Positions 323-7,911 of a DNA stretch of 7,911 nt are shown here, piece by piece. The position numbers were made by a program, and so were the translations under genes. The stretch spans positions 1 to 7,911 of the forward strand of contig CAZFVS010000049.1 in NCBI GenBank assembly GCA_964522265.1, read 5' to 3'. This DNA is from an uncultured Gammaproteobacteria bacterium (GTDB lineage: Bacteria > Patescibacteriota > Microgenomatia > Daviesbacterales > UBA10151). Numbering within the stretch: position 1 is the stretch's first letter; every line of letters begins with the position of its first letter. Below the pieces are notes generated by a model. It saw only the letters and a program-made list of their open reading frames with translations, did not search any database and was not told the DNA's origin.

Positions 323-349
323 CTGACACAAACAGGACAATGCTATAAT
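323..349 (+). promoter_or_regulatory. sigma-70-like promoter with extended -10 for the 359..2616 operon
   Basis: TGcTATAAT spans 341-349 (TG 341-342, TATAAT 344-349). A weak -35 CTGACA lies at 323-328 with a short 15-nt spacer. Only 9 nt separate the -10 from the ATG at 359 and there is no usable SD, so a leaderless or very short-leader mRNA is implied. Confidence 0.45.
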
Positions 350-358
350 GACGGGGCT

Positions 359-1684
359 ATGGTCAGAACCAGAATAATTATTATGGGGGCAGCCGGCCGC
401 GATTTCCATAATTTCAACGTTTACTACCGCGATCATCCAAAATACCAAGTCGTTGCTTTTACAGCCTACCAGATCCCTAACATCTCTGACAGAAAATATC
501 CTGCCAAGCTTGCCGGCAAATTATACCCTCATGGCATCCCTATCCACCCGGAAGACGAACTGAATGATCTAATTCAGAAACATAGCGTGAACGGGGTCAT
601 TTTTGCCTATTCTGATATCTCTTATGAATATGTTATGCATAAAGCTTCTTTGGTAAATGCTGCCGGTGCAAATTTTACCCTGTTGGGGATGAAACAAACT
701 ATGTTGCATTCCAAAAAGCCTGTTGTGTCTATCTGTGCAGTAAGAACCGGCTCAGGCAAAAGCCAGGCTTCAAGAAAGGTCACAAGATACTTGCTCAAAA
801 AAGGGCTTAAAGTTGTGGCAGTAAGACACCCTATGCCTTACGGCAACCTGACCAAGCAGACCACCCAAAGGTTTGCATCATATGAAGACTTGGACAAAAA
901 TGAATGCACGATTGAAGAGCGGGAAGAATATGAACCATATATTGAGCAGGGTATGGTGGTTTTTGCCGGGGTGGATTACGGGAAAATTTTAGAGCTGGCT
1001 GAAAAAGAAGCTGATGTCATAATCTGGGACGGCGGGAACAATGATACCCCTTTTTATAAACCTGACCTGCATATTGTGATTGCCGATCCACACAGGAGCG
1101 GGCATGAAAGCACTTATTACCCCGGTGAAACCAATGCCAGGATGGCTGATGTACTGATCATAAACAAGGTCAATACAGCCAAGGCTGAAAATGTTAATGC
1201 TGTTTTTACAAACCTAAAACTTTTAAACCCTAAAGCCATTATTATCAAATCTGATTCCGTTATAAACGTTGTAGAGCCGGAAATAATCAGGAATAAAAAA
1301 GTGTTGGTTATAGAAGACGGCCCAACAGTCACCCATGGTGAGATGGCTTACGGTGCAGGTTTTTTTGCAGCCAAAAAATATGGCGCCAGAGTAATCGATC
1401 CGAGAAAATTCGCAGTAGGGTCTATAAAAAAGACATTTGAGCAATTTCCCCACCTAAAAGAGGTACTTCCCGCAATGGGTTATAGTGATAAACAGAGGGG
1501 CGAGCTGCAAAAAACAATCAATACTTCAAATGCACAAGCTGTTATTATCGGTACCCCAATAGATCTGGCAAAACTTATCAAATTAAACAAACCGTCTGTC
1601 AGAGTCACTTACGATATAAAAGAACGCGGCAGTGTTACACTGGATGATATACTGGCAAAATTTGTCAAAACACACAATTTATGA
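359..1684 (+). CDS. COG2403-type P-loop NTPase-fold enzyme (cyclic 2,3-diphosphoglycerate synthetase / arginine synthetase ArcE family; often annotated 'predicted GTPase')
   Basis: 441-aa ORF. The N-terminus IIIMGAAGRDFHNFNV is characteristic of this family. It has a P-loop CAVRTGSGKSQ (nt 737-766), a Walker-B-like ADVIIWDGGNND and an NKxD-like LIINKVN. The stop overlaps the next start in ATGA (1681-1684). Confidence 0.85.
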   Translation: MVRTRIIIMGAAGRDFHNFNVYYRDHPKYQVVAFTAYQIPNISDRKYPAKLAGKLYPHGIPIHPEDELNDLIQKHSVNGVIFAYSDISYEYVMHKASLVNAAGANFTLLGMKQTMLHSKKPVVSICAVRTGSGKSQASRKVTRYLLKKGLKVVAVRHPMPYGNLTKQTTQRFASYEDLDKNECTIEEREEYEPYIEQGMVVFAGVDYGKILELAEKEADVIIWDGGNNDTPFYKPDLHIVIADPHRSGHESTYYPGETNARMADVLIINKVNTAKAENVNAVFTNLKLLNPKAIIIKSDSVINVVEPEIIRNKKVLVIEDGPTVTHGEMAYGAGFFAAKKYGARVIDPRKFAVGSIKKTFEQFPHLKEVLPAMGYSDKQRGELQKTINTSNAQAVIIGTPIDLAKLIKLNKPSVRVTYDIKERGSVTLDDILAKFVKTHNL

Positions 1685-2616
1685 CCTCCCTTGAAAAACA
1701 GACTACCTCTGCATTGCTTATGATCAGACCTGCTAATTTTGGCTTTAATGAGGAGACTTTTGCAACATGCCCATTCCAAAAAAGAATGGACCTGCCCGCG
1801 GAGGAGGTGCAAAAAAGGGCCTTGCATGAATTCGACCTGCTGGCTGGCAAACTTAAATCCGAAGGGGTCAATGTTATAGTATTTGAAGATACTCCGGAGC
1901 CGAAGAAACCCGACGCGATATTCCCCAACAATTGGGTCACTTTTCATGAAAACGGCACTATTGCCCTCTACCCAATGCTGGCACCAAAAAGAAGGCTAGA
2001 GCGCAGAATAGATATTTTGGCCAGTTTAAAAAAAGATCGTCAATACCGCGCTTCAGATATCTGCGATCTCACACCATTTGAAAAAAAAGGAGAGTTTCTA
2101 GAAGGAACCGGCAGTATGGTCCTGGACCGGATTAACAGGATTGTTTATGCTTGTTTATCACCCAGAACGCATCAGGAACCGCTTAAAAAGTTTGCTGAAA
2201 TATTTGGCTACAAAACAGTTACTTTCCATACCCGTGACATGATGGAAAAACCGGTTTACCATACAAACGTGGTTATGAGCGTGGGCGAAAAATATGCAGT
2301 TGCCTGCCTTGAAGCCGTTTCAGAAAAACAGGAAAAAACAAGGCTTTCACAAAGCCTTAAAAAAACCGGCCATGAGCTGATTCCTATCACGCTTGACCAG
2401 ATGTACAGGTTTTGCGGGAATATCCTGCAGATAAAAAACCTGCTTGGGGAACCGTTAACGATTATGTCAGATCAGGCCTGCAAAACCTTCACCAAAAAAC
2501 AGCTTGGGGTAATAAAAAAATACACCCGGACAGTAACCTCCCCAGCGGAAACAATCGAAACAATAAGCGGAGGAGGCGTCAGGTGTATGATGGCAGAAAT
2601 TTTCCCGCAGATTTAA
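1681..2616 (+). CDS. guanidino-group modifying enzyme superfamily hydrolase (arginine deiminase-related protein; resembles proteins annotated citrulline utilization hydrolase CtlX)
   Basis: 311-aa ORF. Family-typical motifs are present: KQTTSALLMIRPANFGFNEET, PDAIFPNNW, LEGTGSMVLD, PVYHTNVVM (catalytic His region) and the C-terminal GGGVRCMMAEIF with the nucleophile Cys302 (nt 2584-2586). It is translationally coupled to the upstream gene. Confidence 0.85.
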   Translation: MTSLEKQTTSALLMIRPANFGFNEETFATCPFQKRMDLPAEEVQKRALHEFDLLAGKLKSEGVNVIVFEDTPEPKKPDAIFPNNWVTFHENGTIALYPMLAPKRRLERRIDILASLKKDRQYRASDICDLTPFEKKGEFLEGTGSMVLDRINRIVYACLSPRTHQEPLKKFAEIFGYKTVTFHTRDMMEKPVYHTNVVMSVGEKYAVACLEAVSEKQEKTRLSQSLKKTGHELIPITLDQMYRFCGNILQIKNLLGEPLTIMSDQACKTFTKKQLGVIKKYTRTVTSPAETIETISGGGVRCMMAEIFPQI

Positions 2617-3230
2617 ACTGGAGGATTTTTCCTCTTAAGAAAAATAAAAACTCCTGCCGTACTCATTAAGGCTCCTGAAACCATACCAAACACAAGCAGA
2701 ATCTGGGTGGGTGAAATATTTGTTGGGGATGTTTTGATAATCTTTTTTGCGTTTGGATCAACTACTTCTATTGTCGCTCCCCTGCTTTTTGTTAAATCCA
2801 GGGAGTTTTTATTTTCAACCCCGGTTGGGATAGCTGATTCCGGATTAATGCTTATCTTGGCCTGGCCGTCTTTGATGGTGCGGAAGGTTAATTTTGCCAC
2901 CAACAGGTCCCCGTTTTGAGAAACAATATTGGCTCTGGTAATTTTCATTTTGCCGGGGGTTAGTTTTTCTTTGGCCTGCATCGAAAAAGCAGAAGATTCA
3001 TAATCAATTTTTGTCAGGCTTAATATACTGCTATTGTAATCAAGTGTCACTCCTATAGCATTTACCAACTCCCCTTCACTATTTAACCTAAGCTCCAATT
3101 CTATCTGGTCACTGATGGTTTTACTCGGAAGACTCTCCGGTAAAAGATAAAGTGTGGATGCTGATACTGTTTTGGGCAGCATTAAAACTAACAATAGTAA
3201 AAGTGGCAAAATTATGTTTTTTTTAATCAT
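2613..3230 (-). CDS. cohesin-domain surface protein with N-terminal signal peptide and C-terminal membrane anchor
   Basis: 205 aa. Signal peptide MIKKNIILPLLLLLVLMLPKTVSA. A cohesin-like beta-sandwich segment covers roughly aa 25-150 (YLLPES..QIELELRLNS..VNAIGVTLDYNSSILSL..LLVAKLTFRTIKDGQAKISI). The C-terminal hydrophobic helix ILLVFGMVSGALMSTAGVFIFL is followed by KRKN. An AAGGA RBS lies 5 nt upstream of the ATG. The gene overlaps the upstream gene by 8 nt. Confidence 0.8.
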   Translation of the reverse strand: MIKKNIILPLLLLLVLMLPKTVSASTLYLLPESLPSKTISDQIELELRLNSEGELVNAIGVTLDYNSSILSLTKIDYESSAFSMQAKEKLTPGKMKITRANIVSQNGDLLVAKLTFRTIKDGQAKISINPESAIPTGVENKNSLDLTKSRGATIEVVDPNAKKIIKTSPTNISPTQILLVFGMVSGALMSTAGVFIFLKRKNPPV

Positions 3231-3984
3231 CCATGTCCTTGATTAATATAGCAAAGTCAAAAGAATTAATTACAAAATTTCTATCCATATCGCCATCGCT
3301 TATACTGGCTAAATGTTTACCCCAATTGTTAAATAATGTCCGTACATCAAAAACATCAACTTTGTCATCCTCATTTAGGTCAGCCTTTCTCTTTGGTTTT
3401 CGAGGAGTGGCAGAAGGACTGGCAGAATCTGATGCCTCAGTGATATCAATAGTTAGCGGAAAGGGGTTGGCATTTTGGATAAGACCGGTGTTGGACTGAA
3501 ATTTAGCGAATAAGGATTTTGTTCGGTTTGAAGCATCTTTCAAAAATGTATAAATAACCGTGCTGTCTCTAAACTGCTCATAATTATATTCTTTTTTATT
3601 GATATGGAAACGTTCATCTTCTGCTAAAACAGCAGATTTAGTAGCAACACTGTCTATCGGCGCAGAGATTGCAGCGGCTGTTAAATTCCAATTGGGAGAT
3701 ATTAACTTAATTTCTGCCTCTCTTGAGGAAATCCTGGTAACACTGTTCCCCAAAGAATCAAGCACAAAAATATTCTGCTCACTGGCTTTAGATTGAGGCT
3801 TAAAGAAGAGATTGGTAAAAAGGTTATTTTTAAAAGAGAAGGCCATGGCAGAGATAAAAAATACGATCAGACCCAGGGTAGCAACTATTATTGGTAATCT
3901 GCTGGTTTTTAGAAGAGAGTCTGTTTGGCTTGATTGTTCCGGGAACTGTTGGGTTTGGACTGGATCTGGATTATTAATAACCAT
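3223..3984 (-). CDS. membrane-anchored protein with uncharacterised extracytoplasmic domain and C-terminal dockerin module
   Basis: 253 aa. N-terminal TM helix LPIIVATLGLIVFFISAMAFSF. The C-terminus carries two EF-hand-like dockerin repeats, DLNEDDKVDVFDVRTLFNNW and DGDMDRNFVINSFDFAILIKDM (about nt 3226-3387), preceded by a Ser/Pro/Lys linker. Confidence 0.8.
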   Translation of the reverse strand: MVINNPDPVQTQQFPEQSSQTDSLLKTSRLPIIVATLGLIVFFISAMAFSFKNNLFTNLFFKPQSKASEQNIFVLDSLGNSVTRISSREAEIKLISPNWNLTAAAISAPIDSVATKSAVLAEDERFHINKKEYNYEQFRDSTVIYTFLKDASNRTKSLFAKFQSNTGLIQNANPFPLTIDITEASDSASPSATPRKPKRKADLNEDDKVDVFDVRTLFNNWGKHLASISDGDMDRNFVINSFDFAILIKDMDD

Positions 3985-4005
3985 CTTTAGTGACTTCTAA
4001 TTTTG

Positions 4006-4017
4006 ATGATATATCAT
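4006..4017. promoter_or_regulatory. 12-bp perfect palindrome ATGATATATCAT abutting the -10 of the dockerin/cohesin operon promoter; candidate operator
   Basis: The sequence is exactly self-complementary. It covers the predicted transcription start region of the minus-strand promoter at 4017-4045. Confidence 0.3.
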
Positions 4018-4045
4018 TTATACTAATACCGCCACCATAAATCAA
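4017..4045 (-). promoter_or_regulatory. sigma-70-like promoter for the dockerin/cohesin operon
   Basis: The minus strand reads TTGATT (plus 4040-4045), a 17-nt spacer, then TATAAA (plus 4017-4022). An A/T-rich UP-like tract (4051-4065) lies upstream. The promoter sits about 33 nt upstream of the ATG at 3984. Confidence 0.5.
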
Positions 4046-4076
4046 TCTGGAAATTTTAAAAACTTACAGTGAATAT

Positions 4077-4622
4077 TTACTCAAGAATACGGACACCACC
4101 ATAAGGATAAATCCATACTTGGACAGTCCTATCCCGTTGTAGGGTACTCCCTGTCCCATCCCTCCCATCAAATTCAAAAATACCTATATCCTGAAATCTT
4201 CCAAGCTGCAACTCATTATTCATGATAGGTACAAAAACTCCTGGTTGAGAAAATAGCAATGCCCTTAAATGCCTTCCAGCGTTTGCATCGTTTTCTTCTT
4301 CATCTGGTCTCAAGCGCGGATTATCACCACACCAATGTTTATAAACTCGCGGAATTCCGTCATAATTTTTTTCTTTAAACCAGTTTCCTCTTAGATCTTC
4401 CCCTACCAAGCTTAAGGAAAAATCGATCATATCATCTCTTAAATTTGGTTCTATTACTTCAGTCAAAATAACACCTAAAGTTGTATGCAACGAACGGACA
4501 AATGTCAATCCTGTTTCTACTTCAGATTTTTTCACTGCTTCCCTAACTTCAGGGGTGATATCCTGAATATAGGTAGGCTCAAGGGATTTAAACTTTAATT
4601 CTTTTAAATATACTTCCAACAT
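4077..4622 (-). CDS. YjbQ/UPF0047 family protein (secondary thiamine-phosphate synthase-like), with extra internal segments
   Basis: 181 aa. Family-like motifs: IQDITPEVREAVKKSEVETGLTFVRSLHTTLGVILTEVIEPNLRDDM, then YKH...NAGRHLRALLFSQPGVFVPIMNNELQLGRFQDIGIFEFDG. It is longer than typical members of about 140 aa. Confidence 0.75.
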   Translation of the reverse strand: MLEVYLKELKFKSLEPTYIQDITPEVREAVKKSEVETGLTFVRSLHTTLGVILTEVIEPNLRDDMIDFSLSLVGEDLRGNWFKEKNYDGIPRVYKHWCGDNPRLRPDEEENDANAGRHLRALLFSQPGVFVPIMNNELQLGRFQDIGIFEFDGRDGTGSTLQRDRTVQVWIYPYGGVRILE

Positions 4623-4628
4623 AATTTT

Positions 4629-4637
4629 TGATATATT
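4629..4637 (+). promoter_or_regulatory. possible extended -10 element (TGaTATATT) for the sigma-factor gene
   Basis: TG at 4629-4630 and TATATT at 4632-4637, 13 nt upstream of the ATG at 4651. No clear -35 and no SD. The region is AT-rich, so a chance match is plausible. Confidence 0.3.
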
Positions 4638-4645
4638 ATTAGTCT

Positions 4646-4673
4646 ATTATATGCCAAAAATCCCACGAATCAA
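4646..4673 (-). promoter_or_regulatory. sigma-70-like promoter for the YjbQ-family gene, overlapping the start of the divergent sigma-factor gene
   Basis: The minus strand reads TTGATT (plus 4668-4673), a 16-nt spacer, then a consensus TATAAT (plus 4646-4651). The -10 overlaps the A of the sigma-gene ATG (4651-4653). Confidence 0.45.
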
Positions 4674-5247
4674 GCACAAATCTTTAAGGCATGAGCGCAG
4701 CTCTACTTTGTATAAAGGCTTTGAATTGGTTTATAAAGAGCTGGCGCTGCCTTTAATGAAGTTTTTAGTAAAAAGAATGGGTGGTGAAAAGCAAGCTGCA
4801 GAGGAGGTATTCTCAAATACAACTTATGCAGCTTTAAAAGGCTGGCATACTTTTTCTCATAAAAGCAGTTATTTTACCTGGATTTGCAAGATCGGCTTAA
4901 ATAAGATTGCAGATTATTACCGTTCTCAAATTCATGAAAAATCCATTATTATAGCTCCCCTTTTGGAGGAGCTTTCAGAAAGACACAGTGATGAACTCTC
5001 CATCGAAGAAAAATTAATTCTAAAAGAGCTAAGAATAAACGTCAGAGCTTGTTTGATGCTCCTACCGGGAGAAAAAAGAAAGCTTATATATTTAAGATTT
5101 TATAAGCAGTTAACAATCAAAAAGATTGCTGAAATTTTTAACACATCAGAAAGATCAGTTGAGGGAAAGATTTACAGAGCAAAGCTTGAGTTAAAAGAAA
5201 CAATCTCTCTTAAACATCCCTATTTAGCTTATCGAAAAAATCCATAA
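4651..5247 (+). CDS. ECF-type (group 4) sigma-70 family RNA polymerase sigma factor
   Basis: 198 aa. Region 2-like AEEVFSNTTYAALKGWHTFSHKSSYFTWICKIGLNKIADYYR. Region 4 LPGEKRKLIYLRFYKQLTIKKIAEIFNTSERSVEGKIYRAKLELK with a helix-turn-helix. Confidence 0.85.
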   Translation: MPKIPRIKHKSLRHERSSTLYKGFELVYKELALPLMKFLVKRMGGEKQAAEEVFSNTTYAALKGWHTFSHKSSYFTWICKIGLNKIADYYRSQIHEKSIIIAPLLEELSERHSDELSIEEKLILKELRINVRACLMLLPGEKRKLIYLRFYKQLTIKKIAEIFNTSERSVEGKIYRAKLELKETISLKHPYLAYRKNP

Positions 5248-5316
5248 ATAATTCTCGCACGCATACACCCCTTGCAAAACTATTTTCATTTTGTTTACAT
5301 TAAATTATGTAGAAAA

Positions 5317-5553
5317 ATGAAAAACAAAAAAGTCGCTGCCCTGCTTTCACTACTTTTTCCCGGTCTTGGTCATTTGTATATTGGTAAACACATTGATGGA
5401 ATAATATTTCTAATCGCCGGTTTGTTTTTGTGGTTTGTTACTTACTTAAAGAGCGAGCTCATATTCCAATTTAATAACCAGGCAGTTATTGTTCTGATGG
5501 CTTTGGCGGGTATTTATATCTACACAATTTTTGACTCCTACAGAAAAGCATAA
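5317..5553 (+). CDS. small integral membrane protein (78 aa) with LLFPGLGHLYIGK motif; function unknown
   Basis: The track ORF begins at a TTG (5272). I prefer the ATG at 5317 (MKNKKVAALL...), which gives a Lys-rich N-terminus followed by 2-3 hydrophobic helices. The stop is 6 nt before the next ATG, which suggests an operon with the peptidase. Confidence 0.6.
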   Translation: MKNKKVAALLSLLFPGLGHLYIGKHIDGIIFLIAGLFLWFVTYLKSELIFQFNNQAVIVLMALAGIYIYTIFDSYRKA

Positions 5554-5559
5554 AAAAGG

Positions 5560-6465
5560 ATGATTTATTTATTCGGGGCGATAACTTTATTCGTGATCCT
5601 TGATTCTCTCAGGGGATATTTTACGGCTAAAAACAAAAAGCGGTATCTTATACAACTTTTTGTAGGGCTCCCACTGATCATCATCTTACTCTTTTTATTT
5701 GGTCCTTTTTTTATTCTGTCGCCTCTTAAAATCGGCTACTCAGCCCTAAAAAATGACAACATTACTCTTTACTACCCGGGGGATAGAATGGATTTTGCCA
5801 AGGAAATGATGAAGCAACTTCAAGAAGCAGACTCATACAACAAAGGTTTTTATAAAACCACTTATCCAATGCCTATTTTGGTCGCCACCTCGGAACTTGA
5901 TATGTTGAGGTTCGGTTCTTATCCCAAGGCAGGCGGAACAGGCAATGAGCTGGGAATAAATATCCGGGAAGGAAGAATGAGCGTGGGAAAAATCGCCCAT
6001 GAGATGTCACACCGCAATCTTGTTTCACTTACCGGTAAATCAGCTATTACATTCCCCCGTTGGTTTGATGAAGGCTTGGCTTCTTATATAGGGAAAATGG
6101 ATGATTATAAAAAACCGCAAGATCTTCAAGATGATATAAAAAAAGGGGTATATGCCAAAGATATTCTTAACATACGCGGAATTTTCGGCACTATCCAATG
6201 GCTGAAAAGAGTTGATTTTAATAAAGAGAGTAGAGTTTTCTACGGACAGAGCTATTTGATGGTTAAATACCTGTTTGATAAATATGGCCAGGATAAGGTC
6301 TATGAGTTTGTGCAGTCTTTAAAAAATAATGATTTTGAAAAAGCTTTTATACAATCTTTTGGTGTAACTGAAGAACAATTTCTACAAGAATTTACCAACT
6401 ATATCCAAAACTATACTGATAATCCTATCCATAGCGCTCCTGATAATCCGCCTCAGATTCCTTGA
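5560..6465 (+). CDS. membrane-anchored zinc metallopeptidase, gluzincin (peptidase MA-like)
   Basis: 301 aa. Two N-terminal TM helices (IYLFGAITLFVILD, LIQLFVGLPLIIILLFLFGPFFIL). HEMSH at aa 147-151 (nt 5998-6012), followed 19 residues later by Glu171 in WFDEGLASY (nt 6070-6072). This gives an HExxH-x19-E arrangement, close to the M1-type HExxH-x18-E. Confidence 0.8.
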   Translation: MIYLFGAITLFVILDSLRGYFTAKNKKRYLIQLFVGLPLIIILLFLFGPFFILSPLKIGYSALKNDNITLYYPGDRMDFAKEMMKQLQEADSYNKGFYKTTYPMPILVATSELDMLRFGSYPKAGGTGNELGINIREGRMSVGKIAHEMSHRNLVSLTGKSAITFPRWFDEGLASYIGKMDDYKKPQDLQDDIKKGVYAKDILNIRGIFGTIQWLKRVDFNKESRVFYGQSYLMVKYLFDKYGQDKVYEFVQSLKNNDFEKAFIQSFGVTEEQFLQEFTNYIQNYTDNPIHSAPDNPPQIP

Positions 6466-6533
6466 AATAGACCACCTTCCATTTGAACTAGGTTGACACC
6501 TACTCTTTTTCAGGATTGGGCTTCTAAAGGTAA

Positions 6534-6573
6534 AAGTCAATGAGGCTCCGCGGAGCTTCATACAAGTTGACTT
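6534..6573. repeat. composite inverted repeat / hairpin overlapping the -35 of the methyltransferase promoter
   Basis: The outer arms AAGTCAA (6534-6540) and TTGACTT (6567-6573) are complementary. The inner arms TGAGGCTCC (6541-6549) and GGAGCTTCA (6552-6560) are complementary with one G-T pair, around a CCGCGG centre. A 6-nt asymmetric bulge TACAAG lies at 6561-6566. No T-tract follows, so it is not a classical terminator. Confidence 0.5.
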
Positions 6574-6594
6574 GAAGCGGTTGTATGCTAGAAT
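6567..6594 (+). promoter_or_regulatory. strong sigma-70-like promoter with extended -10, positioned for a leaderless methyltransferase mRNA
   Basis: TTGACT (6567-6572), a 16-nt spacer, then TGcTAGAAT (6586-6594). The -10 ends 7 nt before the A of ATG 6602, and there is no SD. Confidence 0.5.
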
Positions 6595-6601
6595 AAAAAC
6601 C

Positions 6602-7447
6602 ATGTTAGCAGAGCGTATTGAAATAACAGGTAGGTCTTATCAGGAAGGTGAACGAGCGGGATTAGAGGAATTGGCTAATAGACATGGCGTTCCCGGCATA
6701 GAAAGAAACACAGACCAGTATAGTGATATTGGTAAGAAAGGATGGTGGGATCTGAAAAATGGTCTTCATCCAGCACTTCACTTGTTAAATCCAACAAGGG
6801 TGGGATTCGCTGCGGGTGTTTTTGAGAGGTTTAAAGTATCAAAAGATAGGCCGGTTCTTGAGGGTGGTTCCGGCGGTGGAGTTTTTGCTGAGGCTTTGGC
6901 AAGGAGGGGATATCGTGTTATGGGCGTTGATATATCAGAAGGGGCTATAAAAGTTGCCAGAGAGCATGCCAGACAATCCGGGCTTAATAATCTTATTACA
7001 TATAAATACGGAAGTTTATATGCGTTGCCATTCCCAGATGCCTCTTTCCAAGCTGCTGTCTACCCTGATGTCTTGGAGCACCTCGAAGATCTAGACCGTG
7101 CAATGAAGGAAATTAGCAGGGTTTTGGTGGTAGGAGGTGTGTGGGTATTTGATACTATCGAAAGGGATGAAGGGGCTGTGGAACGGTTTATGGGACTGGA
7201 ACAAAACGGGACAATCCCGCCTGGCACGCATGATCCGAAATTATTTATCAAACCTCGTGAATTGGCGGAGGCTGCCCGGAGGCATGGTCTGGAAATACCA
7301 AGAGACCCAGATAATCCATATGGTATTAAGATACTATCTGTGGCTGCTTCTCAGAGACCTGATGAAGGATTAAACTTTGTATTAGAAGAAATTCATAGAG
7401 ACTCACCACCAATAGGGCATTATATAGGATATGCCATCAAGAGTTAG
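6602..7447 (+). CDS. class I SAM-dependent methyltransferase, UbiG/COQ3-like
   Basis: UbiG-like signature WWDLKNGLHPALHLLNPTRVGF. Motif I VLEGGSGGGVFAEALA. Acidic post-I residue in YRVMGVDIS. Also PDVLEHLEDLDRAMKEISRVLVVGGVWVF and a FIKPRELAEAA tail. The track start is a TTG at 6572. I prefer the in-frame ATG at 6602 because a near-consensus promoter occupies 6567-6594. Confidence 0.8.
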   Translation: MLAERIEITGRSYQEGERAGLEELANRHGVPGIERNTDQYSDIGKKGWWDLKNGLHPALHLLNPTRVGFAAGVFERFKVSKDRPVLEGGSGGGVFAEALARRGYRVMGVDISEGAIKVAREHARQSGLNNLITYKYGSLYALPFPDASFQAAVYPDVLEHLEDLDRAMKEISRVLVVGGVWVFDTIERDEGAVERFMGLEQNGTIPPGTHDPKLFIKPRELAEAARRHGLEIPRDPDNPYGIKILSVAASQRPDEGLNFVLEEIHRDSPPIGHYIGYAIKS

Positions 7448-7493
7448 AAAATGAACCCCTCCCCACTGCTTGCAGCGAGGTATTCTGCTTCTG

Positions 7494-7530
7494 CAAATAA
7501 CAAACAACCCACCGATTTCTCGATGGGTTG
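7494..7530 (-). terminator. rho-independent terminator for the minus-strand ORF ending at 7543
   Basis: The minus strand reads CAACCCATCGA-GAAA-TCGGTGGGTTG. This is an 11-bp stem (plus 7505-7515 / 7520-7530) with one G-U pair and a GNRA tetraloop, followed by TTTGTTATTTG. On the plus strand the same position is a C-A mismatch and no T-tract follows, so it is oriented for the minus-strand gene. Confidence 0.7.
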
Positions 7531-7542
7531 TACAAAACTACA

Positions 7543-7911
7543 TCACGGAATCAAATTGTGCTCGAACAGATAAGCACCCGGATGCCAACCAGTCAGATGT
7601 CCTCCGCTAACATCACTAGACAGAACGAGCCAAATCTTGTACAGACCTGATGTTTCTCCACCTGATCCTACGTCAGCCGTACCTGCTATGTGAACGTTCC
7701 CTGCGGCGTCTGCCACATCACTCCCAATCACAGTCACACTCGGCCAGCCATTATATTCAACCAAGGTATAATCCGTGCCAGGAACAAGTCCATGCCCATT
7801 AAAAACACCTGAGATTGTTTGGTCAGAAAGCTTGAAGTTGTATTTCGCCCAAGCACCATCCCAGACGATATTCCAACTTGTATCTTTCTGATACAGATAC
7901 AGGTTTTGTGT
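7543..7911 (-). CDS. hypothetical protein, C-terminal fragment (5' end outside window)
   Basis: My manual translation shows the frame stays open from the window edge (7911) to the TGA at 7543-7545, giving 122 aa: TQNLYLYQKDTSWNIVWDGAWAKYNFKLSDQTISGVFNGHGLVPGTDYTLVEYNGWPSVTVIG...KIWLVLSSDVSGGHLTGWHPGAYLFEHNLIP. The track start at 7764 is only an internal TTG. The protein is beta-strand-like and Gly/Ser/Asp-rich. A good terminator follows. No family was recognised. Confidence 0.6.
   Translation of the reverse strand, partial: TQNLYLYQKDTSWNIVWDGAWAKYNFKLSDQTISGVFNGHGLVPGTDYTLVEYNGWPSVTVIGSDVADAAGNVHIAGTADVGSGGETSGLYKIWLVLSSDVSGGHLTGWHPGAYLFEHNLIP

Follow-up and report, generated by a model that had tools for sequence, protein, structure and literature searches.

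An ArcE-CtlX operon with a probable role in arginine breakdown

The 7,911-nt contig CAZFVS010000049.1 (assembly GCA_964522265.1) carries two adjacent genes, ORF1 and ORF2, that probably form one operon for an energy-conserving, two-step breakdown of arginine to ornithine. They are the two longest open reading frames (ORFs) of the window, by which we mean the whole NCBI contig; gene content is known to the contig ends only. ORF1 encodes a homologue of the arginine synthetase ArcE, a P-loop enzyme from the 'predicted GTPase' family COG2403, and ORF2 encodes CtlX, a putative citrullinase with a guanidino-group-modifying fold (Table 1). The host lineage of the pair is most likely Microgenomates, part of the Candidate Phyla Radiation (CPR), and the host is likely a mesophilic, ultra-small CPR bacterium. 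Both enzyme families are known; their combination, and its tie to the pairing of arginine deiminase (ADI) with CtlX in other bacteria, appear to be undescribed. A first-pass annotation of this DNA, made from the letters alone, had called the pairing uncharacterised, and the literature searched yielded no paper that connects ArcE to CtlX or to a citrullinase.

In the proposed pathway, ORF1 would catalyse arginine + ADP + Pi -> citrulline + NH3 + ATP close to equilibrium, and ORF2 would catalyse citrulline + H2O -> ornithine + CO2 + NH3, an irreversible step that would pull the first. Because the hydrolysis by CtlX is irreversible, citrulline would be kept low and ATP formation drawn forward. 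The two steps would sum to arginine + ADP + Pi + H2O -> ornithine + CO2 + 2 NH3 + ATP, yielding one ATP per arginine with two proteins and dispensing with ornithine carbamoyltransferase (OTC), carbamate kinase and carbamoyl phosphate. Profile searches with Pfam and NCBIfam found neither OTC nor carbamate kinase encoded in the window, in agreement with the first-pass annotation, and the arcA, arcB and arcC cluster of a classical ADI locus is likewise absent from it, none of the three genes being present. The same annotation had proposed that the two genes serve one pathway, for example arginine deimination with ATP formation followed by citrulline breakdown, and this reading is supported by the conserved coupling of the genes, the family membership of their products and the parallel with ADI-CtlX pairs. 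We infer what the enzymes of this clade catalyse, which way flux runs and what physiological role the pair has, be it ATP formation or the supply of ornithine and polyamines or of ammonia.

Coupling and conservation of the gene pair

The coordinates and lengths of both ORFs, all the motifs quoted in the first-pass annotation and the ATGA overlap between the two genes were recovered in the sequence (Table 1). No Shine-Dalgarno sequence was seen upstream of the ORF2 start. An ATGA junction that lacks a ribosome-binding site implies that translation of ORF2 is coupled to that of ORF1 by termination and reinitiation, which would enforce joint translation of the two enzymes. The overlap is not a chance arrangement, since the same 4-nt junction is found in three further lineages whose CtlX proteins are 80, 68 and 54% identical to ORF2. 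These are the three closest relatives of ORF2, and each lies behind an ArcE homologue that overlaps it in the same way: a metagenome contig (L087; CtlX 80% identical to ORF2, ArcE 86% identical to ORF1 over a C-terminal fragment only), the Candidatus Daviesbacteria metagenome-assembled genome GCA_016186955.1 (L088, with L089 and L090; CtlX 68%, ArcE 82%) and another metagenome contig (L094; CtlX 54%, ArcE 72%). The next CtlX relatives are at most 51% identical to ORF2 and of Bacteroidota type.

Bootstrapped neighbour-joining trees recover the coupled CtlX proteins as one clade with 99/100 support, and the coupled ArcE proteins together with their uncoupled sisters L002 and L004 with 100/100 support. 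The branching order within the coupled clade is the same for CtlX and ArcE; from this congruence and the shared junction it follows that the pair arose once and has been co-inherited together with the 4-nt junction. The coupled clade is small, Daviesbacteria-like and made up of four lineages. Whether the gene pair is conserved, a question raised by the first-pass annotation, has a divided answer: it is conserved within the four-lineage clade, and it is not general. A CtlX-like sequence lies within 10 kb of ArcE in none of 86 loci (80 species genomes and six metagenomic contigs), and ArcE is found at only one of 80 other metagenomic CtlX loci, whose CtlX proteins are 43-51% identical to ORF2 (L095-L174). 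The six contigs carry the three closest metagenomic ArcE relatives, and one of them stops at the ArcE stop codon; the further close ArcE relatives P0009 (71%) and P0005 (70%) are uncoupled as well. Canonical arcB and arcC genes immediately outside the window, which would have made this a standard ADI-type locus, had been a concern of the first-pass annotation. In L088 neither gene occurs in the 10 kb around the pair, and nor does arcA.

A promoter-like element precedes ORF1 (Table 1). Its extended -10 ends 9 nt ahead of the ORF1 ATG, and no Shine-Dalgarno sequence is found there. The Daviesbacteria locus L088 (8620-8678) has the element TGgTATAAT ending 6 nt before the ArcE ATG, again with no Shine-Dalgarno sequence, while at the uncoupled sister L002 a ribosome-binding site, AAAGGAG, stands in place of the extended -10. 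Because the extended -10 ends so near the start codon, the arrangement suggests a leaderless or near-leaderless operon transcript, which is a prediction only. A consensus promoter scanner made no call at this element, owing to its short spacer, and a generic promoter and terminator scan counted about as many elements in the window as in shuffled sequence.

ORF1 belongs to the ArcE family

By homology ORF1 is an ArcE-family protein and not a cyclic 2,3-diphosphoglycerate (cDPG) synthetase. The family was identified by Michimori et al. (2024) as arginine synthetase, the product of gene TK2200 of Thermococcus kodakarensis (PMC11032458); the locus tag TK2185 given in the first-pass annotation is wrong. 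TK2200 catalyses arginine + ADP + Pi <-> citrulline + NH3 + ATP with a Keq of ~10 and a deltaG0' of -6.8 kJ/mol at 80 C (Michimori et al., PMC11032458/PMC13260591). Over 436 aa, ORF1 shares 61% identity and 80% positives with the Thermococcus protein P0353, with a single one-residue gap, and 62% identity and 82% positives with P0296 of P. furiosus. These Thermococcales orthologues came from a search that started from a Desulfurococcales member. P0353 is the representative of 201 Thermococcus and Palaeococcus sequences clustered at 90% identity, and TK2200 is not among the 15 members listed; ORF1 is linked to TK2200 via the genus-level orthologues and the statement that arcE homologues occur throughout Thermococcales (PMC11032458). 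ORF1 has no Pfam or NCBIfam match, giving sub-threshold hits to ResIII and CobW only, and its family was therefore set via its homologues and the literature.

Homologues of ORF1 are numerous and conserved to an unusual degree, at 57-70% identity across Archaea and Bacteria, and a scan of species genomes with the pattern MGAAGRDF yielded 595 confirmed relatives. None of these was more than 65% identical, and the Daviesbacteria genome was not among the genomes retrieved. The P-loop TGSGKS of ORF1 reads TGCGKS in Thermococcales. ORF1 retains all 77 invariant columns of a 94-sequence family alignment, and P350K (Lys350 of ORF1, nt 1406-1408) is the only highly conserved ArcE position at which the coupled clade has a private residue; with every invariant column kept and this single change, ORF1 gives no hint of a change of substrate. 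The text of PMC11032458 names no ArcE catalytic residues, and no ArcE structure or mutagenesis was found. In public databases the members of the family, Thermococcales orthologues included, are widely named 'cyclic 2,3-diphosphoglycerate synthase', 'predicted GTPase' or 'GTPase'. This misannotation is being propagated, and NCBIfam release 20 holds no model for the family.

The predicted structure of ORF1 agrees with this placement. Its AF2 (AlphaFold2) model has a pLDDT of 91.9, and Foldseek returned the cDPG synthetase 8oru as the best fold in the PDB (E 4e-18, 18% identity), followed by LpxK 4ehy (E 8.5e-10). A P-loop NTPase fold resembling LpxK 4EHY, combined with low similarity to cDPG synthetase, agrees with the authors' account of TK2200, for which LpxK 4EHY was the structure used to infer nucleotide binding (PMC11032458). 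The database names of its homologues and the identity of the best PDB match might be taken to mean that ORF1 is a cDPG synthetase or a regulatory GTPase whose adjacency to ORF2 is meaningless. We consider this extremely improbable. ORF1 is only 17-18% identical to the solved cDPG synthetases in the fold alignment, and a phmmer search of the PDB found the cDPG synthetase 9sxb as its only relative, with E=0.012 over ~100 residues, as against 61-62% full-length identity to Thermococcales ArcE; a place of ORF1 inside the cDPG synthetases, which would have told against the reading of the first-pass annotation, is not borne out. The family adjoins arcC, arcB and argS, and the 4-nt overlap is kept in four lineages with congruent trees. 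Identity, context and the conserved junction together essentially refute the cDPG synthetase or GTPase reading.

The genomic context of ORF1 homologues elsewhere points to arginine. Among 150 ORFs flanking 80 species-genome homologues, 16 encode arginyl-tRNA synthetase, 6 an AA_kinase domain and 3 an OTCase fold. A carbamate kinase gene lies directly downstream of the homologue at L012, L046, L049, L057 and L074 and an OTC gene at L058 and L083, all above equivalog cut-offs, and the homologues at these seven loci are 59-63% identical to ORF1. Association with arcB and arcC is thus a property of the family, while the partner in the window is CtlX instead.

ORF2 is a CtlX protein

ORF2 is a CtlX protein and thus a putative hydrolase of citrulline to ornithine. 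It scores 388.2 bits against the NCBIfam equivalog NF046062, 'citrulline utilization hydrolase CtlX' (cut-off 334; profile positions 2-299 of 299), and matches Pfam PF19420 at 7e-98. The profile searches proposed in the first-pass annotation thus placed ORF2 in the CtlX equivalog and left ORF1 with no model at all. CtlX was defined by Price et al. (2022) from mutant fitness on citrulline, and both guanidino-binding Asp residues of arginine deiminase-type enzymes are Asn in CtlX (PMC9007349). ORF2 shows both replacements, FTRD to FPNN and HLD to HTN, together with the catalytic Cys302, and retains all 45 residues that are invariant among 120 CtlX sequences. The earlier assignment of ORF2 to CtlX, and not to an ordinary DDAH or arginine deiminase, stands. 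Its AF2 model has a pLDDT of 87.9, and its best fold matches, at a TM-score of ~0.7, are DDAH-1 and the domain of ArgZ/AgrE that acts as arginine dihydrolase. Cleavage of a ureido group by such a fold has precedent, because ArgZ/AgrE take arginine via citrulline to ornithine.

The CtlX proteins of the coupled clade carry marks of their own: Cys in place of Asn at residue 30 (Table 1), a two-residue insertion at residues 120-121 (nt 2038-2043), M248I/V, L270F and G296S. Along with P350K of ArcE, they may mark an interface or a change of specificity. A different guanidino or ureido couple, for example agmatine -> N-carbamoylputrescine -> putrescine for polyamines, could be imagined as the true substrate series. 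Such a view would draw on N30C, at a position invariant elsewhere, and on the two-residue insertion, as well as on the neighbours of some ctlX genes: an Orn/Arg-type decarboxylase, often placed after ctlX elsewhere, ties the wider family to polyamines, and behind the pair in L087 lies a fused transporter and spermine-synthase-like gene. That spermine-synthase neighbour is found in one lineage only, however, ORF1 keeps every family-invariant residue and differs at one conserved position, and ORF2 lies above the CtlX cut-off with all its invariant residues in place. We therefore hold a change of substrate to be quite unlikely.

The fused gene of L087 (1247-3526) lies directly downstream of ctlX and encodes a 759-aa protein with a major facilitator superfamily (MFS) transporter domain, matched weakly, and a spermine/spermidine-synthase domain. 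It gives a weak hint that ornithine from the pair feeds polyamine metabolism.

ArcE takes the place of arginine deiminase

Elsewhere the position upstream of ctlX is commonly held by a different gene. In 30 of the 80 comparison loci, and at L179, a gene for a divergent ~480-aa protein of the arginine deiminase family was found by tblastn directly upstream of ctlX on the same strand; L179 carries the next-closest CtlX to ORF2 after the coupled clade. Pfam searches on 128 CtlX-flanking ORFs, 70 of them upstream, found ADI in 34. An ADI-like gene precedes ctlX in about 40-50% of Bacteroidota-type CtlX loci. Further neighbours that recur there belong to ornithine-consuming types, an Orn/Arg-type pyridoxal phosphate-dependent decarboxylase (7) and a class-III aminotransferase (3), in keeping with a route that ends in ornithine. 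The ADI-like proteins match arginine deiminase models at E ~1e-70, yet fall below the equivalog cut-offs; the one that was read, from L179, keeps the Asp residues (FSRD, HID) and has GGFHCM. The two genes do not overlap, being separated by gaps of ~10-180 nt with one outlier of ~550 nt (for example ADI-like 1767-3218 and CtlX 3275-4195 at L179, and ADI-like 4440-5876 and CtlX 6001-6897 at L104). The obvious reading of ADI-CtlX in these many bacteria is a predicted route from arginine to citrulline to ornithine and on to further use as putrescine or glutamate-semialdehyde. This adjacency is not mentioned in PMC9007349, and no published description of it was found in the literature searched.

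In the clade of the window, ArcE sits in the slot of ADI, which by gene order and homology is a non-orthologous displacement of ADI. Because ArcE fills the slot that ADI holds elsewhere, it is expected to run here in the arginine-degrading, ATP-forming direction, and the replacement would turn an ATP-neutral ADI-CtlX module into an ATP-yielding one. It is possible, and we put this forward tentatively, that the pair constitutes a self-sufficient two-enzyme phosphorylation system, acquired via ADI displacement, that is a major ATP source in Microgenomates devoid of OTC and carbamate kinase, with a possible citrulline-channelling complex of the two proteins. If true, it would be the smallest known route of arginine fermentation and the first physiological role for a bacterial ArcE.

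The only one of the 80 comparison CtlX loci with an ArcE is L142 (3049-8180), where an ArcE 51% identical to ORF1 lies 1.5 kb upstream of ctlX and an ornithine-oxo-acid transaminase gene directly follows ctlX. This ArcE belongs to a distant branch, beside a Caldisericia sequence, and L142 is a second, independent and looser association of ArcE with CtlX.

Between the two genes of L142, a 448-aa protein is encoded on the minus strand; it was considered as a transporter and ruled out, as it has no transmembrane segments and carries a HEIGHE metalloprotease motif. A PDDEXK_2 transposase gene lies just upstream of this ArcE.

The two enzymes could also meet at citrulline as a branch point, with scavenged citrulline as their shared substrate, ArcE making arginine for an auxotroph and CtlX making ornithine and ammonia. 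The ArcE reaction can go either way, and in vivo the enzyme allows arginine to be formed from citrulline; its discoverers suggest that it acts biosynthetically in some bacteria without argG and argH (PMC11032458). CtlX itself was found originally as a citrulline-utilisation gene (PMC9007349), and the ArcE homologues of Anaerolineae (L010, L014-L016, L019, L020, L022, L030 and others) adjoin arginyl-tRNA synthetase, sometimes with an Obg GTPase (6), a context that may fit a biosynthetic or arginine-supply role of ArcE there. Several points nevertheless make this arrangement unlikely for the window. The gene that occupies the slot upstream of ctlX elsewhere is ADI, an irreversible converter of arginine to citrulline, which points to arginine as the input. 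With a Keq of ~10 toward citrulline and an irreversible sink, net arginine formation would need high ammonia and citrulline. Obligate co-translation of a synthetase with the destroyer of its own substrate would, moreover, be wasteful.

An ATP-yielding conversion of arginine to ornithine remains our preferred reading, against which a number of points have to be set. ArcE activity has been measured only for TK2200, a hyperthermophile enzyme, at 80 C, and the reversibility of ArcE means that it could run toward arginine. The citrullinase activity of CtlX rests on mutant fitness and sequence reasoning, and Price et al., who stress that biochemical proof is lacking, call for biochemistry (PMC9007349), as the first-pass annotation had sensed in remarking on how little of it there is; the CtlX of the coupled clade, furthermore, has N30C and the two-residue insertion as changes of its own. 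Support for the coupled ArcE clade is moderate (76/100 in the bootstrapped neighbour-joining tree). With four lineages the clade is small and rare: a degenerate junction pattern, which matched all coupled lineages locally before use, had 0 matches in metagenome contigs of the Joint Genome Institute (JGI). Finally, arcB and arcC, ADI, an arginine/ornithine transporter or argG and argH could be encoded elsewhere in the genome.

Comparison with known arginine pathways

The ArcE-ArcB-ArcC pathway of T. kodakarensis (TK2200; PMC11032458, PMC13260591) begins with the same enzyme, which has the same fold matches (cDPG synthetase and LpxK 4EHY). There citrulline is phosphorolysed by OTC and then passes to carbamate kinase with a gain of 2 ATP, whereas the window pair would hydrolyse it by CtlX and is expected to gain 1 ATP. 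The pair would also differ in having no carbamoyl phosphate, an irreversible second step, translationally coupled genes and a likely mesophilic CPR host; in effect, one ATP would be given up for thermodynamic drive and a smaller gene set. These ATP yields, like the others compared here, are deduced from published stoichiometries. The classical ArcA-ArcB-ArcC pathway, including the system acquired by Saccharibacteria (PMC8764695), resembles the route proposed for the window pair in its yield of 1 ATP per arginine, its occurrence in a reduced-genome CPR host and its end products, ornithine, CO2 and 2 NH3. It uses three enzymes and carbamoyl phosphate and forms ATP last, at carbamate kinase, whereas the pair would use two unrelated enzymes and form ATP first.

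The ADI-CtlX pairs of Bacteroidota type share with the window pair the gene order, the strand, the second enzyme and the inferred chemistry. In these the hydrolytic deiminase would waste the energy of deimination (0 ATP), whereas in the window the unrelated P-loop enzyme ArcE would conserve it as ATP. The CtlX proteins of Pseudomonas and Phaeobacter (PMC9007349) belong to the same equivalog family, with FPNN and HTN; their genes adjoin ornithine cyclodeaminase or aruG and serve the use of external citrulline, whereas the citrulline in the window would come from ArcE. Cyanobacterial ArgZ/AgrE (PDB 6juy, 6lrf) shares the fold of ORF2 and the same overall conversion of arginine to ornithine, CO2 and 2 NH3; it carries out both hydrolytic steps in one active site, conserves no ATP and is 14-18% identical to ORF2. 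The cDPG synthetase of Methanothermus fervidus (PDB 8oru/8ork, 9sxb) is the most similar solved fold to ORF1, with a P-loop and a comparable length, and differs from it in sequence (17-18% identity), substrate and genomic context.

ArcE has been known only since 2024, and the operon couples a shown producer of citrulline to a proposed consumer of it. Both the ArcE-CtlX operon and the ADI-CtlX pairs lend independent support to the assignment of CtlX as a citrullinase, and together they outline a path from arginine to ornithine that appears not to have been described before and that in its ArcE form would give one ATP with no carbamoyl phosphate. With their sparse energy metabolism, CPR bacteria could plausibly use it as an ATP source; arginine catabolism is known to matter in Saccharibacteria (PMC8764695). 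The exchange of ADI for ArcE would be a clear example of a non-orthologous displacement that raises the energy yield of a pathway.

Features of the operon and the rest of the window

Table 1. Features of the ArcE-CtlX operon; nucleotide positions are those of the window and residue numbers those of the respective protein.
Feature	Position (nt)	Strand	Residues or length	Remarks
Promoter-like element	323..349	+		CTGACA 323-328, 15-nt spacer (12 nt + TGc extension), extended -10 TGcTATAAT 341-349; read from sequence
ORF1, ArcE-type arginine synthetase homologue	359..1684	+	441 aa	P-loop enzyme
ORF1 N-terminal family signature GAAGRDFHNFN	386..418	+	10-20	M9-N18 and N20 invariant in alignment A1
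ORF1 Walker A / P-loop TGSGKS	746..763	+	130-135	G131, G133, K134, S135 invariant in alignment A1
ORF1 VIIWDGG	1016-1036	+	220-226	
ORF1 NKVN	1163-1174	+	269-272	
ATGA stop/start overlap ORF1-ORF2	1681..1684	+		ORF1 TGA 1682-1684, ORF2 ATG 1681-1683
ORF2, CtlX, putative citrullinase	1681..2616	+	311 aa	guanidino-group-modifying fold
ORF2 QTT		+	7-9	
ORF2 LMIRPANFGFN		+	13-23	
ORF2 Cys30, coupled-clade marker	1768..1770	+	30	Asn in 116/116 other CtlX compared, Cys in 4/4 ArcE-coupled
ORF2 DAIFPNNW		+	78-85	
ORF2 FPNN, CtlX signature	1921..1932	+	81-84	in place of FTRD of guanidino-binding enzymes; invariant in 120 CtlX sequences
ORF2 LEGTGS		+	140-145	
ORF2 YHTNV		+	193-197	
ORF2 HTN, CtlX signature	2260..2268	+	194-196	in place of HLD; invariant in 120 CtlX sequences
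ORF2 GGGVRCMMAE		+	297-306	
ORF2 catalytic Cys302 in GGGVRCMMAE	2584..2586	+	302	invariant in 120 sequences; catalytic role inferred from superfamily

Two overlapping genes on the minus strand, 2613-3230 and 3223-3984, converge on the operon. The product of the former has 205 aa and no family match, and carries a signal peptide and, at its C-terminus, a hydrophobic anchor; that of the latter has 253 aa and weakly matches dockerin type I (E 1.8e-4, narrowly missing the cut-off). Both genes are 76% identical to genes of L087, with which the region is syntenic, and their products may be a cohesin/dockerin-like surface pair. Next to them, at 4077-4622 (-), lies a YjbQ/UPF0047-like gene (Pfam 9.5e-19, below the NCBIfam YjbQ cut-off); the profile match is split into two parts, suggesting that the conserved core contains an insertion.

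The plus-strand genes at 4651-6465 encode an extracytoplasmic function (ECF)-type sigma factor (198 aa), a small membrane protein of the TM2/DUF6677 type (93 aa) and a Peptidase_MA_2 protein anchored in the membrane (301 aa), which may form a sigma/anti-sigma/protease signalling module. Rfam gave only a sub-threshold snoRNA-like match in the window, away from the operon. The G+C fraction is 0.44-0.47 at 6500-7750 of the contig and 0.32-0.37 at 4500-5500. A partial ORF at 7543-7911 (-) runs off the 3' end of the contig, its C-terminal ~120 aa having no family match. The gene at 6572-7447 (+), which lies in the clearly G+C-richer part and has a TTG start, encodes a UbiG-like class I methyltransferase (107.3 bits against a UbiG cut-off of 102.95); the ORF as delimited here is not in the protein collection, and the deposited gene call probably uses another start.

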